A stretch of DNA of 32,000 bases, taken from positions 9,490 through 41,489 of the forward strand of contig JAPZAR010000028.1 of the NCBI GenBank assembly GCA_027460535.1. The letters run 5' to 3'. The translations under genes and the position numbers were made by a program. Of this stretch, positions 18,091 to 30,222 are shown piece by piece. The stretch's first letter is position 1, and every line of letters starts with the position of its first letter. The stretch is from Candidatus Methanoperedens sp. Its GTDB lineage: Archaea > Halobacteriota > Methanosarcinia > Methanosarcinales > Methanoperedenaceae. The notes under the pieces were generated by a model. It searched no databases. It was not told where the DNA came from and saw only the letters and a program-made list of their open reading frames with translations.

Positions 18091-18789
18091 TCATCGGTTA
18101 ATCCTTAGTTTTCCTCCTTCGATCTCATATTCAAGCCAGAGAGTGGGTTTTGATGACAGTCCGACAATTCTTATGTAATTCTTGTCATTTTCCTCTTTGA
18201 TCTCAATGATACCATCAAAAAGTTGTTTTAATGTCGCTATTGTATGATCGTCATGCATGCCAACTTCTATTACAAAAATTCCAAGGGCTCCAGCTGCCTT
18301 GACGCGTCCTGTAAGAACATGCATGAACCTGAAAACGGTCTGGATATTTGAATACATCAATATTCCAGAAAGTGAATTGATATGAAGCTGGATTTTCAGG
18401 AGTTTCTTTTTCATGAGAAAATCCTCAAAAAACTGGCTTATGCGTACTCCTATTCCGGTCAAATCCACGGGACTGCTGGCAAATTTGATGTTTTCAGTTT
18501 CAATGGCAGTCACTCCAATCGATTTTGTAATGCAATCAATAATCCCTATCCTTGATAGCGGAAGTACCATTTTGTTCTCTTTGAACCATTCCAGGATTTG
18601 AGTAGGTGATTCATGAGTTGTTACCGTTATTAATGCATTTTCATTTATCTCCGCACCGTGAAACATTATATTGTACAAGATAATTTCTTTTTGGATCATT
18701 GGCGGACCGACCAGCATGATGTTCGTGCCATTTCTTATGCCTCCAATTGCATTATCCAGTTCTTCAATACCAAGTTTATAATCACTCAT
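18091..18789 (-). CDS. KaiC/RAD55-like RecA-superfamily protein with a degenerate Walker A motif
   Basis: The N-terminus KLGIEELDNAIGGIRNGTNIMLVGPPMIQKE aligns with the G...LD..LGGG...G...L..G.PG.GKT pattern of signal-transduction RecA-like ATPases. Here the P-loop is GPPMIQKE: the second Gly is replaced by Gln, the Lys is retained, and the final Ser/Thr is replaced by Glu. Confidence 0.65.
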   Translation of the reverse strand: MSDYKLGIEELDNAIGGIRNGTNIMLVGPPMIQKEIILYNIMFHGAEINENALITVTTHESPTQILEWFKENKMVLPLSRIGIIDCITKSIGVTAIETENIKFASSPVDLTGIGVRISQFFEDFLMKKKLLKIQLHINSLSGILMYSNIQTVFRFMHVLTGRVKAAGALGIFVIEVGMHDDHTIATLKQLFDGIIEIKEENDKNYIRIVGLSSKPTLWLEYEIEGGKLRINR

Positions 18790-18813
18790 TGTTCCCCCTC
18801 CTAATGGTATGGT

Positions 18814-19677
18814 TTAATCCGATTTTCGCGTTTCATAAACTCTGTTGCGTTCAATGATGTCATAGAAAATCAGTACAATACCAATGATGTTATCTTTGTC
18901 ATCATTGATAGTTGAACCGATAATATCTACGGGTATTTTCATACCTTCCTTTGTTATCAATACCGTATGATCTGCTAGACCGTAAAAAATATCTTCTCGA
19001 ATGGCCTTCGTTACAGGGTTTTCTACCTGTTTGTCAGATTCTTCGCTAATAATATTGAATACGGTTGTCAGAGGTTTACCTGAAGCATCTTCCTGCTTCC
19101 AGCCCGTCAGTGCCTCTGCAATTGGATTCATAAGTCTTATGGTTCCTTCCGGGTCAGTTGCAATCACTGAATCACCTATACTTTGAATTACTGCAACAAG
19201 CCATTGATTGCTCTCTTTCAATCTCCGTTCACTTTCTTTTAATTTCTGTTCCATATAATGTTTGTAGAGGGCAATCTCAATAGTAATCTGTAATTCTCTT
19301 TCTCTGAATGGTTTAATCAAATACCCGAAAGGTTCTGTTAATTTTGCTCGTTCCAGTGTTTTTTCATCAGCGTAAGCTGTGAGGTACACGATCGGGGTGT
19401 CTAAATGGGAGCGTATTTGCTCAGCAGCTTCAATCCCATCCATCTTACCATGTATTACAATATCCATCAGCACCAGATCAGGATTATTTTCTCTCGTCTT
19501 TTTAATAGCCTCTTCTCCTGAAGATACTATTACTGGAACAGTATATCCCATCTTCTTCAATCTTCGTTGTATATCTTCGGCAATAGTAATTTCATCTTCA
19601 ACAACAAGTATCTGTTTTACGGTCTTATCCGATCTTCTTTCTATGCCTTCATCGACAATAATTCCCATCTTTAACAC
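18814..19677 (-). CDS. Response regulator: receiver (REC) domain fused to a PAS domain
   Basis: REC hallmarks are ILVVEDE, DLVLMDI (phospho-acceptor Asp), T..AY and KP. A coiled linker and a PAS domain follow (AVIQSIGDSVIATDPEGTIRLMNPIAEALTGW). Confidence 0.85.
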   Translation of the reverse strand: MLKMGIIVDEGIERRSDKTVKQILVVEDEITIAEDIQRRLKKMGYTVPVIVSSGEEAIKKTRENNPDLVLMDIVIHGKMDGIEAAEQIRSHLDTPIVYLTAYADEKTLERAKLTEPFGYLIKPFRERELQITIEIALYKHYMEQKLKESERRLKESNQWLVAVIQSIGDSVIATDPEGTIRLMNPIAEALTGWKQEDASGKPLTTVFNIISEESDKQVENPVTKAIREDIFYGLADHTVLITKEGMKIPVDIIGSTINDDKDNIIGIVLIFYDIIERNRVYETRKSD

Positions 19678-19698
19678 CCTGTATTTGTATCTCTGGGG

Positions 19699-20751
19699 TC
19701 ATTTTATCCCTCTAAATTTTATTTTAAACTCTGTTCCTTTAATTCGATTAAGATTGATTTCACCGTGAAGTTGATTTTCTGCTAGCGTTGTGACAAGATG
19801 TAAACCCAATGACTCGGTTTTTCTGAAATCCAAATCTTTCGGTATACCAATACCATCATCGCTGACCACGAGTTCAAGCATAGTTTCACCAATCGAGCGA
19901 AATGCTATCTTAATTTCACCGCCGGTGCCTGCTGGAAATGCATATTTTAGAGAATTAGTAACCAGTTCATTAATTATCAATCCGCATGGAGTCGCAAAAT
20001 CAATATCCAATGGAATGTTTTCGATATTCATGTTTAGTGTTATTTTGCTTCCATTAACTTCAAATGTTTGAATAACGTCAGCTATCATATCACTAATGTA
20101 CTCATTGAAGTCGATTTTTGCTAAGTTTTTGGACTGATAAAGTTTTTCATGGACAAGAGCTATCGATAATATTCTGTTCTGGCTTTCTATAAACATATCA
20201 ATCACGTTTTTATCTCTGATGTATTGGGATTGATGTGCTAGTAGACTGGAAACAATCATCAGATTGTTTTTGACACGATGGTGAATCTCCCTCAAAAGTA
20301 TTTCTTTTTCTTTGAGGGACTGAATGATCTGCTCCTGAGCCTGCTTTTGCTCTGTGGCATCTTTAATAACAACAACATATTTCACTTCGCCTTTTATTTT
20401 CACTTTATTATTACTTACAAAGATATCTCTTCGTGATCCGTTTTTTGTTACAATTGCTGCTTCATAAGGCTTACTTATACCTTGTTGGATTTCTTCCCAA
20501 CGCATTCGCATGAACTCATGCTTATCCTCCGGAATGACTTTCATAAACGGTTCACCAATAAGCTCATCCATAGGCCATCCGAGTATTTTTGAAAATGCAA
20601 CATTACCATACTCGAACTTTCCTTCTGTATCAACCACAAATATCCCGTCAACTGATGTTTTAATGATAGTATCAATATAATTGTTTGATTCTTTTAGTTT
20701 TTCTTCAGCCCGCTTGCGCTCTGTAATATCTCTCATGACGGCCAACAGCAT
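19699..20751 (-). CDS. PAS plus HisKA_2/HWE-type histidine kinase; the 3' portion of a frameshifted sensor kinase gene
   Basis: DITERKRAEE linker, a PAS domain, the H-box EIHHRVKNNLMIV (HisKA_2 signature), and HATPase_c blocks (NELVTNSLKYAF, VSDDGIGI, SLGLHLV). The N-terminal Met at 20751 lies inside a PAS-to-PAS linker, and the reading frame stays open upstream to 20817. Confidence 0.8.
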   Translation of the reverse strand: MLLAVMRDITERKRAEEKLKESNNYIDTIIKTSVDGIFVVDTEGKFEYGNVAFSKILGWPMDELIGEPFMKVIPEDKHEFMRMRWEEIQQGISKPYEAAIVTKNGSRRDIFVSNNKVKIKGEVKYVVVIKDATEQKQAQEQIIQSLKEKEILLREIHHRVKNNLMIVSSLLAHQSQYIRDKNVIDMFIESQNRILSIALVHEKLYQSKNLAKIDFNEYISDMIADVIQTFEVNGSKITLNMNIENIPLDIDFATPCGLIINELVTNSLKYAFPAGTGGEIKIAFRSIGETMLELVVSDDGIGIPKDLDFRKTESLGLHLVTTLAENQLHGEINLNRIKGTEFKIKFRGIK

Positions 20752-21712: not shown

Positions 21713-21846
21713 TACTCAAGTAGTTACATAAACTTTCAGTTATAATTTTCGGTCAAATTTTTAGTTGGGATACAAAATACCTGGAAGGGGTAGAGCTACT
21801 TCAGGACAGAACCCCGCTTGTTATATCCCAGAAAAATTTAAAAAAA

Positions 21847-21860
21847 TTATCCAGAATAAA
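21847..21860 (+). repeat. Copy 1 of the exact 14-mer TTATCCAGAATAAA
   Basis: Identical 14-mers occur at 21847, 21947 and 22231. Copies 1 and 2 are exactly 100 bp apart. Confidence 0.85.
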
Positions 21861-21946
21861 GAGAATTGAAGAGAAGCTGATTGCCGAAAAATGATATCAG
21901 GCTCTTTTCCCTTAGTTACCTTAATACCTTTTATGGACAATTTTCA

Positions 21947-21960
21947 TTATCCAGAATAAA
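21947..21960 (+). repeat. Copy 2 of the exact 14-mer TTATCCAGAATAAA
   Basis: See copy 1. Confidence 0.85.
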
Positions 21961-22018
21961 TACTAAGACAACGATCTATTTTTGTGCACTTAAATCAAAA
22001 AGAATCCTTTTGTTTGAC

Positions 22019-22159
22019 TTAAATTCTTCCGATATTGTATTTTTGTCTTGCTGTCTTGATAACTTCTTTTATTTGTTGGGGAACATGCTCAATACATAGG
22101 CTATTTCCATCAAAGATAAACTCTGCTTCTGCTAGACATTTAATACATTTTAATTTCAT
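22019..22159 (-). CDS. Possible small (46 aa) zinc-ribbon-like protein, below the ORF-track cutoff
   Basis: MKLKCIKCLAEAEFIFDGNSLCIEHVPQQIKEVIKTARQKYNIGRI*, with CxxC...CxxH spacing. It lies in the AT-rich tract about 70 nt downstream (on the - strand) of 14-mer copy 3. There is no convincing SD sequence. Confidence 0.3.
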   Translation of the reverse strand: MKLKCIKCLAEAEFIFDGNSLCIEHVPQQIKEVIKTARQKYNIGRI

Positions 22160-22230
22160 TATCAATCACTAGTTGGTTTCTTTCTACCCTATTGTTATTT
22201 AACCTTTGTATATTGTTTTCTTTTAAAAAT

Positions 22231-22244
22231 TTATCCAGAATAAA
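22231..22244 (+). repeat. Copy 3 of the exact 14-mer TTATCCAGAATAAA
   Basis: Its flank TTTAAAAAT-14mer-AAG resembles that of copy 1 (TTTAAAAAAA-14mer-GAG). Confidence 0.85.
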
Positions 22245-22531
22245 AAGTAAAAACCATAATTTATTTTTCTATAATTATTTTGGTTGCCCTGTAACATTGG
22301 CATCGACATCATTTTTCATTGATTCCCATTTCTTTAATTCCCAGATTAAAATTTTACGGCGCAAGATTTGTTAGGATTAAATAATGGAGAATAAGGAGCT
22401 GGCGATAAAAAAGGGTGATCGAAGGGCTAGAGATAAGTTCGCCAGTCTCAATCTATTATTTGCTGCACAAATACAAGACAGATGTTGTGAAGAATGATGA
22501 CAACTTTAATTTCCCAGGAAATAATCAGAAG

Positions 22532-22616
22532 TGCGAGGGATGGGATTTGAACCCACGAACCCCTTCGGGATTAGCCCCTAAAGCTAACGCCTTTGACCGG
22601 ACTGGGCGACCCTCGC
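22532..22616 (-). tRNA. tRNA-Leu (anticodon UAG), 85 nt, long variable arm, no encoded CCA
   Basis: The - strand reads GCGAGGG TC GCC CAGTCCGGTCAAA GGC G TTAGC TTTAGGG GCTAA TCCCGAAGGGGTTC GTGGG TTCAAAT CCCAT CCCTCGC A. All four stems pair. The anticodon loop is UU-UAG-GG, and the 14-nt variable arm is typical of class II tRNAs. Confidence 0.9.
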
Positions 22617-28702: not shown

Positions 28703-28773
28703 AATATCACCTGAATTGGGCATGTCTTATACCCTCAAAGATATATAACTACCTTTTTAACGAGACCGTTTCT

Positions 28774-28805
28774 ATTTGTGTTGGTAGTTATCCTAAGATA
28801 CAATA
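28774..28805 (+). repeat. Left copy of an imperfect 32-bp direct repeat flanking the AT-rich island
   Basis: atttgtgTTGGTAGTTATcctAAgATACAATA compared with attcgtaTTGGTAGTTATaagAAtATACAATA at 30125-30156 gives 26/32 identities, including an exact 11-mer and an exact 6-mer. Confidence 0.7.
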
Positions 28806-28919
28806 TATAATTTAAAATATGGGTTGTGGGTAAATTGTAGTACTTTTACCAGTGATTTTATCTTTTCTATCATTGGTCAAATATTTGCACAGCGTACCAT
28901 GCCTTTGAAATCTGGGAAT

Positions 28920-29681
28920 TCAATATTTAATAATTTTACCAAAATTTTTAATTAATTCTTTACAAAGCTTTTCATCAATAGTAATATGCTCAAATTTGTT
29001 TAACATAATTAAAGAAGGAAGTTCTTTTTCAGCAACACTGCCTAACCAATCTGTAATTATCAAATCATCATCATTAATCCTCAATTTTTCCTCAAAATAA
29101 TGTGACGGATAATAATCATCATGTAATACAATTTTACGCTGGGGGCTGATAGTTATACAATAGTAATATAAAAAATCAGGATTTTTTAAACCTTCAAGTT
29201 TCAGTTTTTTAATTTCCTGATTAATGATTTGTTTTGTAACGATTTCTACTTCATCAATTGTTTTTTTAAAATTATTATTAAATTCTAAACTATAATCATT
29301 GCCATGTGCGATTTTCTTATTTCTAAATTCTTGAACTCTTGAAATTATCCTATAGTCTATATAATTGGACTGGAGGAATTTTTTTAAATCTTCTGATGTC
29401 GACCGTTTTGATTTAACAAAATTTCTGGTGAATTCTTCTAAACATCTATAATAATTCATGAATTTTTCAATTTTCGTATTTGATAGTTTAGCGAGCGTAA
29501 ACCAAATTAAAGCTTTTTGAAGTGATGAGTTAGGTTCTATATTTTGTTCTAATATTTTTAAATCATTTTCTAAAAATTTCCATTTTCCTAATCTTAATAG
29601 TTGAAAATCATCACTACTGGTCAATGTCAATCTCAATTGGCGAAACCAAATTTTGGTTTTGCTTCGTAATACCAACGGCAA
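28920..29681 (-). CDS. Hypothetical AT-rich protein with an RN(x4)H HEPN-like motif; probably the C-terminal part of a frameshifted gene
   Basis: The 253-aa frame has no ATG in its first ~75 codons (only TTG at 29681). It overlaps the end of ORF 29614..30105 by 68 nt. It contains ...SRVQEFRNKKIAHGNDYS..., which fits the Rx4-6H HEPN signature. Confidence 0.5.
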   Translation of the reverse strand: MPLVLRSKTKIWFRQLRLTLTSSDDFQLLRLGKWKFLENDLKILEQNIEPNSSLQKALIWFTLAKLSNTKIEKFMNYYRCLEEFTRNFVKSKRSTSEDLKKFLQSNYIDYRIISRVQEFRNKKIAHGNDYSLEFNNNFKKTIDEVEIVTKQIINQEIKKLKLEGLKNPDFLYYYCITISPQRKIVLHDDYYPSHYFEEKLRINDDDLIITDWLGSVAEKELPSLIMLNKFEHITIDEKLCKELIKNFGKIIKY

Positions 29682-30105
29682 TAAATGGCACTAATTCCCC
29701 TAAAATTAAAGTATGAAATGAAAACGTGCGTAGGGCGAATTCTTGAATATATTGAATATCATCTCCAGAAAAGGTTAAATCGTATTTTTTAAGATAATAC
29801 TCTGAATCAAATACAATCTGCGATTCATTAGTCTCGGTATTTACATTTTCATAGAAATATCTATCTAAAACAAAATAAAATTTCAATTCATTATCTTTTA
29901 AATTAGTTATTATATCATTATTTTCTAATATTTCGTGAATAGGATATTTATATATCCTACTTTCTAAATATTTATCTCCCCACAAACTAGTTTTTCTCAT
30001 CGAATCATCCATTTGAAGGTAATTGTTAATGGAACAACATAATATATAAAATGTTATTTTGCCATTTTTGCTTAAAAACCGTGTATAATTCTTGTAATAC
30101 ACCAA
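29614..30105 (-). CDS. Hypothetical AT-rich protein; probably the N-terminal part of the same frameshifted gene
   Basis: The start is TTG at 30105, or the first ATG at 30012 (MDDSMRKTSLWGDKY...). The product is rich in Asn, Tyr, Ile and Lys. I recognise no family. Confidence 0.5.
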   Translation of the reverse strand: MVYYKNYTRFLSKNGKITFYILCCSINNYLQMDDSMRKTSLWGDKYLESRIYKYPIHEILENNDIITNLKDNELKFYFVLDRYFYENVNTETNESQIVFDSEYYLKKYDLTFSGDDIQYIQEFALRTFSFHTLILGELVPFIAVGITKQNQNLVSPIEIDIDQ

Positions 30106-30124
30106 TTTAATGAGATTTACTTCA

Positions 30125-30156
30125 ATTCGTATTGGTAGTTATAAGAATATACAATA
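30125..30156 (+). repeat. Right copy of the imperfect 32-bp direct repeat flanking the AT-rich island
   Basis: See the left copy. It lies 20-51 nt upstream (on the - strand) of the TTG at 30105. Confidence 0.7.
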
Positions 30157-30222
30157 GATCTTAATGGATTGACCTAAAAACTACTTGAAATAAGACTTCC
30201 GTGCAAAAGGTACGGGAAATCT

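Follow-up and report, generated by a model that had tools for sequence, protein, structure and literature searches.

The AT-rich island upstream of the LX gene in the window analysed here (a stretch of 32,000 nucleotides (nt) of Candidatus Methanoperedens sp., contig JAPZAR010000028.1 of assembly GCA_027460535.1) is probably a decayed, non-autonomous cassette with terminal inverted repeats, of the type of mobile insertion cassettes (MICs) and miniature inverted-repeat transposable elements (MITEs). It would belong to a family specific to Methanoperedens, and its cargo would be a frameshifted gene for a HEPN-like defence protein. A first-pass annotation, made from the letters of the window, had suggested a small mobile defence cassette whose insertion duplicated part of the LX promoter. 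That suggestion is supported in so far as the DNA is foreign and of mobile type, the gene is of defence type and relatives have no island at this site, but the explanation of the repeats as a promoter duplication does not hold.

Composition and limits of the island

The island extends from 28762 to ~30194 and has a G+C content (GC) of ~0.25, compared with ~0.44 in the surrounding DNA. Measured in 400-nt windows, GC is 0.24-0.28 over 28801-30000 and 0.42-0.49 on either side, bearing out the extreme AT-richness noticed at first reading. The same sequence as the window is present in GCA_027460495.1 (contig JAPZAT010000003.1) and in several ENA assemblies. Two flanking 32-mers had been described as imperfect direct repeats; they do match at 26 of 32 positions, and a repeat search of the window places them inside a longer imperfect direct repeat of 39 nt with 79% identity (28770-28808 and 30121-30159). 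Within the 32 kb the 11-nt core of this repeat, TTGGTAGTTAT, is found at exactly two places, one per island flank, and the repeats are therefore no common promoter element here. The features of the island and its borders are as follows (BRE, B recognition element; aa, amino acids).

28740 to 28753, minus strand: native LX promoter GGTAGTTATATATC, BRE/TATA-like, outside the island; the same sequence precedes LX in relatives
28762 to 28808, minus strand: right-end motif, full length, ATATATTGTATCTTAGGATAACTACCAACACAAATAGAAACGGTCTC; nhmmer 39.5 bits, model positions 2-48; the GC boundary lies here
28809 to 28919, minus strand: 3' spacer from stop codon to right end; bears no relation to the spacer (31 nt) of locus L001, which holds the closest homologous element
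28920 to 30000, minus strand: cargo gene of the HEPN-like family, a pseudogene of ~360-380 aa with its ATG start at 30000 (or 30012), as judged from single-protein homologues
29304 to 29324, minus strand: encodes the R-N-K-K-I-A-H motif, with R112 and H118 numbered along the C-terminal 245 aa
29657 to 29660, minus strand: frameshift site, one extra base in an A4 run (plus-strand T4), from the DNA alignment with L001
30095 to 30112, minus strand: candidate degenerate left terminal inverted repeat CATTAAATTGGTGTATTA, weak, with 5 errors relative to the left end of L052, CAGTTACAATTGGTGTTGGTA
30121 to 30158, minus strand: second right-end copy in direct orientation, its end degenerate; nhmmer 26.8 bits, model positions 3-40
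30159 to 30194, no strand: junction stretch up to the break with an alternative haplotype (contig L011 is 100% identical from 30195 rightwards)

The repeats are copies of a lineage-wide end motif

The insertion had been thought to produce the flanking repeats by duplicating part of the LX promoter region; both are instead copies of a ~47-nt transposon end found throughout the lineage. Beyond these two, an nhmmer model built from 32 Methanoperedens motif copies detected no further copy in the window. When one genome per species was scanned with a degenerate 22-nt core, 32 loci were found where ~1 was expected by chance, all of them in metagenome-assembled genomes (MAGs) of the Methanoperedens/Methanoperedenaceae type and with up to 4 exact-core copies per representative genome. 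A 19-nt end pattern matched 88 metagenome stretches, ~45 of which carry a near-full-length 47-nt motif (>=30 bits), while the remaining matches are confined to the terminal inverted repeat or due to chance. The consensus of ~47 nt reads (A/T)TGTGTTGCACATTAGGATAACTACCAACACGAATTGAAACGGTC(T/A)C, its last ~25 nt constitute the terminal inverted repeat, and both window copies belong to a subfamily with the 5' half GATATTGTATCTT. The gene at L001 is flanked on both sides by repeats homologous to those of the window, and extra right-end copies, internal or upstream of the cargo, are also found in L001, L035, L052 and L022. Judged by these matches, the direct repeats are neither a target duplication nor a promoter copy. 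We found no description of the motif or of the cassette family in the literature on Methanoperedens.

The motif marks an oriented boundary. In 30/30 genome loci, GC is lower in the 600 nt 5' of the motif than on its 3' side (0.33 versus 0.44, Wilcoxon p 2e-9), the AT-rich open reading frame (ORF) usually stops 10-165 nt ahead of the motif, and the nearest ORF is co-oriented with it in 26/40 loci.

Two other explanations of motif matches were rejected. Core matches in viral contigs lie in unrelated coding sequence and their flanks are not conserved. An RNA element is disfavoured by the loss of the GTGTTG/CAACAC pairing in the window subfamily and by the lack of an Rfam match, a covariance model not having been built. 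Separately, the 5' half of the motif contains a palindrome, TGTG-TTG-CACA, the central TTG of which is flipped to CAA in L029 and L052; the L046 copy also has a CAA centre, and its left TGTG arm is not conserved (TTTTCAACACA). The palindrome may be a symmetric protein-binding site.

Transposon hallmarks of the cassette family

On the far side of the AT-rich segment, family elements carry a left terminal inverted repeat of ~25 nt (GAGACCGTTWCAATTYGTGTTGGTA) that is the inverted partner of the right-end terminus. Inverted left ends gave 9 matches on the island side and 2 spurious matches on the larger control side, and terminal inverted repeats are present in L001, L034, L035, L039, L045, L052, L053, L063, L076, L113 and L140. 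Further support for transposition is provided by an 8-bp target duplication in 6/8 complete elements. The flanks of these eight elements agree at 8, 8, 7, 7, 7, 6, 3 and 1 of 8 positions, a total of 47/64, compared with a mean of 24.6 and a maximum of 40 in 50,000 random trials that allowed a slack of +/-1 nt. The six elements with a duplication are listed below.

L039: 8/8, TTTATTCA; a 235-nt copy lacking cargo, perfect duplication
L034: 8/8, GCTTGAAG
L053: 7/8
L001: 7/8
L052: 7/8
L063: 6/8

The metagenome scan added further complete elements, among them L113 (7/8) and the 363-nt L076 (7/8). Elements range from 0.24 to 2.4 kb in size, and most copies carry complete genes of 0.4-1.7 kb. No transposase was found inside elements or recurring beside their ends among the ~120 loci examined. 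In a separate observation, L040 and L043, two contigs of one MAG (LFW-280_3_2), have a related cargo end (82% identity across 174 nt, which take in the 3' end of a gene), which is consistent with more than one copy of a cassette per genome.

The cargo is one frameshifted gene

We confirmed the two overlapping minus-strand frames of the earlier reading, 29614..30105 (163 aa) and 28920..29681 (253 aa), the second of which contains EFRNKKIAHG. The two frames are one gene, split by a 1-nt insertion (+1 frameshift). With the 253-aa frame as query, 12 relatives were found among 5.8 billion proteins; nine fully retrieved homologues are single proteins of 358-410 aa that span both frames, in agreement with the predicted frame-corrected protein of ~400 aa, and the remaining three matches are shorter (150-282 aa). 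The closest homologue, P0001, is intact and 87% identical to the window protein, and its DNA (L001/L002) matches the window only over 28919-30029, with 93% nt identity. In this alignment the window has the extra base in the T4 run and also an in-frame 6-nt duplication. Because split gene calls recur in at least four separate assemblies (L004, L005, L008 and L012), we consider the frameshift real and the gene a pseudogene here; the first-pass annotation had seen that one protein needed frame correction, but the pseudogene state is established only now.

The window and L001 differ by 31 non-synonymous and 19 synonymous codon changes, a ratio that indicates weak constraint, and third codon positions are just 7% diverged. 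The spacers between ORF and motif (28809-28919 and 30001-30120) differ from those of L001 in both sequence and length, implying that the ORF may have switched between element backbones or that the spacers were turned over rapidly. A putative internal TATA box lies at ~30041-30050.

The family has a defence-like genomic context. P0001 adjoins H+-PPase and ThiC, a setting different from that of the window, and the L001 neighbourhood contains genes like those of type III restriction-modification (RM) systems and a UvrD/PD-(D/E)XK protein. SNase, an Eco57I-type RM system and TIR_2 are found near the family member at L003, and a CAP12-type TIR protein near that at L021. No flanking repeats within 450 nt and no motif matches were found near the distant family members at L003, L014-L016 and L021. 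We also observed that P0010 on L003 (262-11658; a 230-kb JGI contig) lies inside an island of ~10.6 kb that separates the CbiG_C and CbiG_N genes; no motif copy was found in this island.

The site upstream of LX in relatives and in an alternative haplotype

The inverted 9-mer ATAACTACC that had been interpreted as a trace of promoter duplication is present at 28745-28753. Because the island-free relatives L060 and L062 conserve the promoter, however, the inverted GGTAGTTAT is the native LX promoter itself, and with the same promoter present in relatives lacking the island we rejected the promoter-duplication reading. The corresponding sequences are AAAAAGGTAGATATATATC in L060, AACAGTAGATATATATC in L062 and AACAGTAGTTATATATC in L063.

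Other Methanoperedens genomes have PfdA homologues of 69-82% identity, and these show that synteny between species is not conserved ahead of LX: L061 has trp genes there, L062 an ArsB-type transporter and L060 yet another gene. No HEPN-like gene lies upstream of LX in L060-L063, and no island in L060, L061 and L062. The first-pass annotation had proposed to look for an empty site; the island is missing at this site in relatives, but a strict empty site was not found, and the PfdA of the closest relatives is only 75-82% identical, with no synteny upstream of LX. In L063 the interval between the transporter gene and LX is occupied by an AT-rich island (GC 0.23-0.31) that carries a DUF2971/PDC-S31 gene. 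A left inverted repeat bounds this island at one end and ...ATTGAAACGGTCAC, directly ahead of the LX promoter, at the other; it has the arrangement and orientation of the window island with different cargo. The presence of other cargo at the same spot in L063 therefore identifies the position before LX as a recurrent insertion point.

On the opposite side, contig L011 of the same sample series agrees with the window at every position from 30195 rightwards (100% identity) and differs from it upstream. It is the only same-population variant, and it is too short to show LX. Its positions 1-1088 encode a 246-aa S-adenosylmethionine (SAM) methyltransferase, translationally coupled to the cupin gene and preceded by a 106-aa ORF, with no motif copy. 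Since identity with L011 begins at 30195, a haplotype break lies right at the cupin-side junction, and an adjacent deletion may have produced it.

State of the window copy and alternative explanations

The right end of the window copy is intact, with the flank GTTAAAAA. At the 5-error threshold that yields the left-end candidate, the window contains 4 matches on both strands, 2 of the others being the motif copies, and the second right-end copy at 30121-30158 lies just outside this candidate. Several observations weigh against placing the island in the cassette family. The window copy has no clean left repeat, and no match to the flank GTTAAAAA that would represent a target duplication was found. 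Two of the eight complete elements, L035 and L045, also lack a target duplication; element ends and duplications were set partly by eye, with a freedom of +/-1 nt; and no autonomous element or insertion sequence (IS) with the same ends was found among the ~120 loci. Finally, the window and L001 have only the ORF in common, which simple vertical descent of one element fails to explain. What places the window copy in the family is therefore its right end, its second motif copy, its composition and a cargo almost identical to that of L001. The frameshift, the degenerate left end and the lack of a target duplication together suggest that this copy is probably immobile and non-functional.

We considered whether the motif might instead be an attachment or recombination site and the cargo cassettes moved by a recombinase, in the manner of integrons or tandem att sites, with the two window copies as attL and attR. 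Direct copies around the cargo in the window, L001, L035, L052 and L022 would fit such a scheme, as would the different cargo held before LX in two species, the pairing of a common host flank with different cargo in L023 and L053, and the small palindrome (TGTG-N3-CACA) with its centre flipped in some copies. We regard it as improbable, however, because the insertion sites differ and have variable 8-bp duplications, the terminal sequences are inverted rather than direct, host-side flanks are unrelated between loci, no integrase gene occurs in the ~120 loci examined, and the motif by inspection lacks the integron attC cores RYYYAAC/GTTRRRY.

Two further readings are effectively excluded. The repeats could be degenerate repeats of a CRISPR (clustered regularly interspaced short palindromic repeats) locus, as solitary units or a mini-array: the best copies, read along the gene, have a length of 37 nt, start with GTTGCA and end with ATTGAAAC like the termini of archaeal repeats, and the downstream copy of L001 reads GTTGCACATTGACATAATTACCAACACGAATTGAAAC. 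Yet no array exists in the 32 genome and 88 metagenome matches (120 loci), which have 1-2 copies per locus at distances of 0.2-2.4 kb; there is no tandem array in the window; Rfam CRISPR-DR models are unmatched even at E up to 10; and inverted ends with target duplications fit a transposon. The other reading, an old resident gene of odd composition with chance or promoter motifs on its flanks and nothing mobile, would account for the presence of the island in every population contig that spans the LX-proximal junction (L004-L010) and for a gene decaying in place. It is contradicted by the occurrence of the motif at dozens of unrelated sites, always on a composition boundary, and only twice in the 32 kb of the window, by the absence of the island here in relatives, and by the location of the nearest homologue elsewhere, beside H+-PPase and ThiC.

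The transposon-type cassette remains the explanation we prefer. A family unit consists of a left terminal inverted repeat of ~25 nt, one or two AT-rich cargo genes and the conserved 47-nt right end. A transposase supplied in trans would cut these ends and insert the unit with an 8-bp target duplication. Where extra right-end copies are present, use of the distal end by the transposase in place of the proximal one could result in cargo capture; the extra copies suggest either such capture or tandem or nested insertions.

A putative HEPN-type protein

The protein family is very rare, with 38 relatives among 1.84 billion representative proteins in an exhaustive profile search, and we found no characterisation of it in the literature. 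Its most conserved feature is the pattern R[NHD]xxxHG. In 33 aligned members the Arg is invariant and the His conserved in at least 90%, and the R-x5-H spacing, FRNK(K/Q)IAHG in the closest relatives, falls within the Rx4-6H signature of HEPN RNases. An AlphaFold2 (AF2) model of the C-terminal 245 aa on the 33-sequence alignment (predicted local distance difference test (pLDDT) 84, predicted template-modelling score (pTM) 0.77) has a helical domain bearing the motif (pLDDT >90), which ends helix 102-116, followed by a small alpha/beta domain. This model replaced a full-length one from 12 sequences, dropped for its pLDDT of 57. In the proposed layout of the protein, a beta-rich N-terminal part precedes a central helical domain with R[NHD]xxxHG, and a small alpha/beta part makes up the C terminus.

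Profile matches are all below threshold. MauJ of Pfam was matched by 12/33 members, the best at 8.8e-6 (27 bits against a 28-bit cut-off), and the other matches were mostly to the HEPN-clan families RiboL-PSP (5e-4), MAE_28990 (7e-3), Apea (0.031), DZIP3 and Swt1; three unrelated families (Isd_H_B_linker, HTH_36 and DUF5503) were matched by one member each. A scan of the 33 members thus gave no significant match to any HEPN-clan family. By hhalign, the window family is joined at 98.9% probability to the 290-aa subgroup that has the best sub-threshold HEPN-type matches. Nothing relevant was found in the literature on MauJ together with HEPN.

Some results speak against a HEPN assignment. The cargo protein has no threshold-level match in Pfam, NCBIfam or PADLOC, Foldseek returned nothing significant in PDB and BFVD, and sequence searches of PDB with three profiles yielded nothing relevant. 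The HEPN toxins HepT, HEPN-MNT, AF_0298 and ST0689 have the highest 'prob' values in the Foldseek search of PDB, at non-significant levels (TM 0.41-0.50, E 1.2-5.9). The profile and AlphaFold/Foldseek searches by which the first-pass annotation proposed to check its HEPN reading therefore produced no threshold profile match and no significant fold match. ApeA_NTD1 and Abi_2, the families it had named, have no Pfam match and PADLOC none, and HEPN_Apea appears only at E 0.031 in 1/33 members, a distant relative. Of that reading, the conserved HEPN-like Rx4-5H motif is supported.

Could the protein be neither a HEPN RNase nor a defence effector, its Arg/His motif serving binding or regulation in another helical fold? 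Every profile match lies under the curated cut-offs, Foldseek has no significant match, PADLOC has no model for the protein, and the codon changes relative to L001 point to weak constraint. We nevertheless hold this to be rather unlikely, since no other feature of the family is as conserved as the motif, whose spacing is the canonical one of HEPN, the sub-threshold matches are mostly to the HEPN clan and MauJ, the top Foldseek 'prob' values in PDB belong to HEPN toxins, and the cassette type otherwise carries defence genes while the family sits in RM/TIR neighbourhoods. A HEPN protein is, on balance, the likelier identity. The call is plausible and unproven, and it draws on the motif, the helical model and the sub-threshold profile matches. 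We infer that the cargo is a putative HEPN-type RNase that would act as a single-gene abortive-infection or toxin-like defence effector.

Comparison with known HEPN defence proteins is in keeping with this assignment in some respects. The protein resembles ApeA, Abi_2 of the AbiD/F type, HepT of HEPN-MNT and RnlA in having a conserved Rx4-6H in what is predicted to be an all-helical domain, ApeA also in a single-gene layout with an additional N-terminal domain, and HEPN defence proteins in its defence-island context. It differs from these families in having no threshold profile match and a TM to HepT and AF_0298 of only 0.41-0.50, and its N- and C-terminal domains have no known relatives.

Defence-type cargo across the family

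Cargo varies by locus. We identified AbiLi with RloB/AbiLii, a type IV restriction HNH enzyme (mREase), a retron-type reverse transcriptase, a STAND NTPase with TPR repeats, PDC-S33 (RelA/SpoT-like), PDC-S31 (DUF2971), a ThsB-like TIR protein and PDC-S66. The nearest ORFs matched 34 PADLOC families on the cargo side versus 3 on the host side. Two cassettes carry cargo lacking any Pfam or PADLOC match, the 347-aa protein of L035 (1700-2743; RNKVFH) and a 278-aa ORF of L032 (RNKIHD), and these proteins may be further unrecognised HEPN-like effectors.

Other AT-rich stretches in the window

Two more stretches of the window are AT-rich. Positions 21713-22616 (GC 0.29-0.36) lie directly 3' of a tRNA-Leu gene (22531-22616, minus strand) and contain tiny ORFs only, including a 48-aa Cys-rich ORF at 22019..22165; they may be the remnant of a tRNA-integrated element. 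The moderately AT-rich stretch 18091-20751 (GC 0.34-0.39), which lacks motif copies, encodes a KaiC-like ATPase (DUF7504), a PAS-domain response regulator and a PAS/HisKA_2 histidine kinase, and appears to be an ordinary signalling cluster.

Relation to known elements and significance

The kind of element described here is already known from bacteria in the form of MICs and MITEs, and the window island is one more such element. MICs are passenger genes between IS-type inverted repeats with no transposase, and MIC231 of Bacillus cereus is one example. Others are the qnrD and qnrS2 MICs (PMC3913671, PMC5444012). The Methanoperedens elements are like MICs in their short terminal inverted repeats, target duplication, one or two passengers with no inner transposase, copies at unrelated sites and a coexisting MITE-like form that lacks cargo (here L039, L076 and L069). 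They differ in being archaeal and confined to one lineage, in their asymmetric ends (47 nt on the right, ~25 nt on the left) and in passengers that are mostly antiviral defence genes, whereas those of MICs are resistance genes; moreover, no partner IS with the same ends, the kind of link by which a MIC is defined, was found among the ~120 loci. The MITEs of archaea and bacteria are likewise small, AT-rich and non-autonomous, with terminal inverted repeats and target duplications, and the copies of 235-363 nt (L039 and L076) fit this description, but most Methanoperedens copies carry complete genes. A single promoter-proximal ORF followed by a conserved 3' site, with variable cargo at a fixed position, is also reminiscent of integron gene cassettes. 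Unlike these, the Methanoperedens cassettes have no integrase or attC cores, possess terminal inverted repeats and 8-bp duplications, and are dispersed rather than arrayed.

The result for the window itself is modest, a pseudogene in a decayed element, and defence genes on mobile elements are commonplace. The more interesting possibility is the family-level pattern, in which one asymmetric end shuttles many defence genes in an archaeal lineage. We tentatively propose, as a possibility that falls short of being likely, a dedicated Methanoperedens shuttle in which transposase-less cassettes with 47-nt ends capture and redistribute diverse single-gene immune systems and reuse intergenic spots such as that before LX. 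Capture would proceed by end read-through or by recombination of one end copy with another, and Borg-like extrachromosomal elements might draw on the same AT-rich pool of cargo. If such a shuttle exists, its unannotated cargo would be a catalogue of new archaeal defence genes, including the HEPN-like family and the 347-aa RNKVFH protein of L035.

Archaeal antiviral defence and its spread are poorly charted, and attention in Methanoperedens has so far been on giant extrachromosomal elements. A rare orphan protein family gains a testable function here, that of a HEPN-type RNase. The short, searchable end sequence would allow uncharacterised defence genes to be mined through guilt by association, and strain-level variation to be mapped in methane-oxidising archaea.

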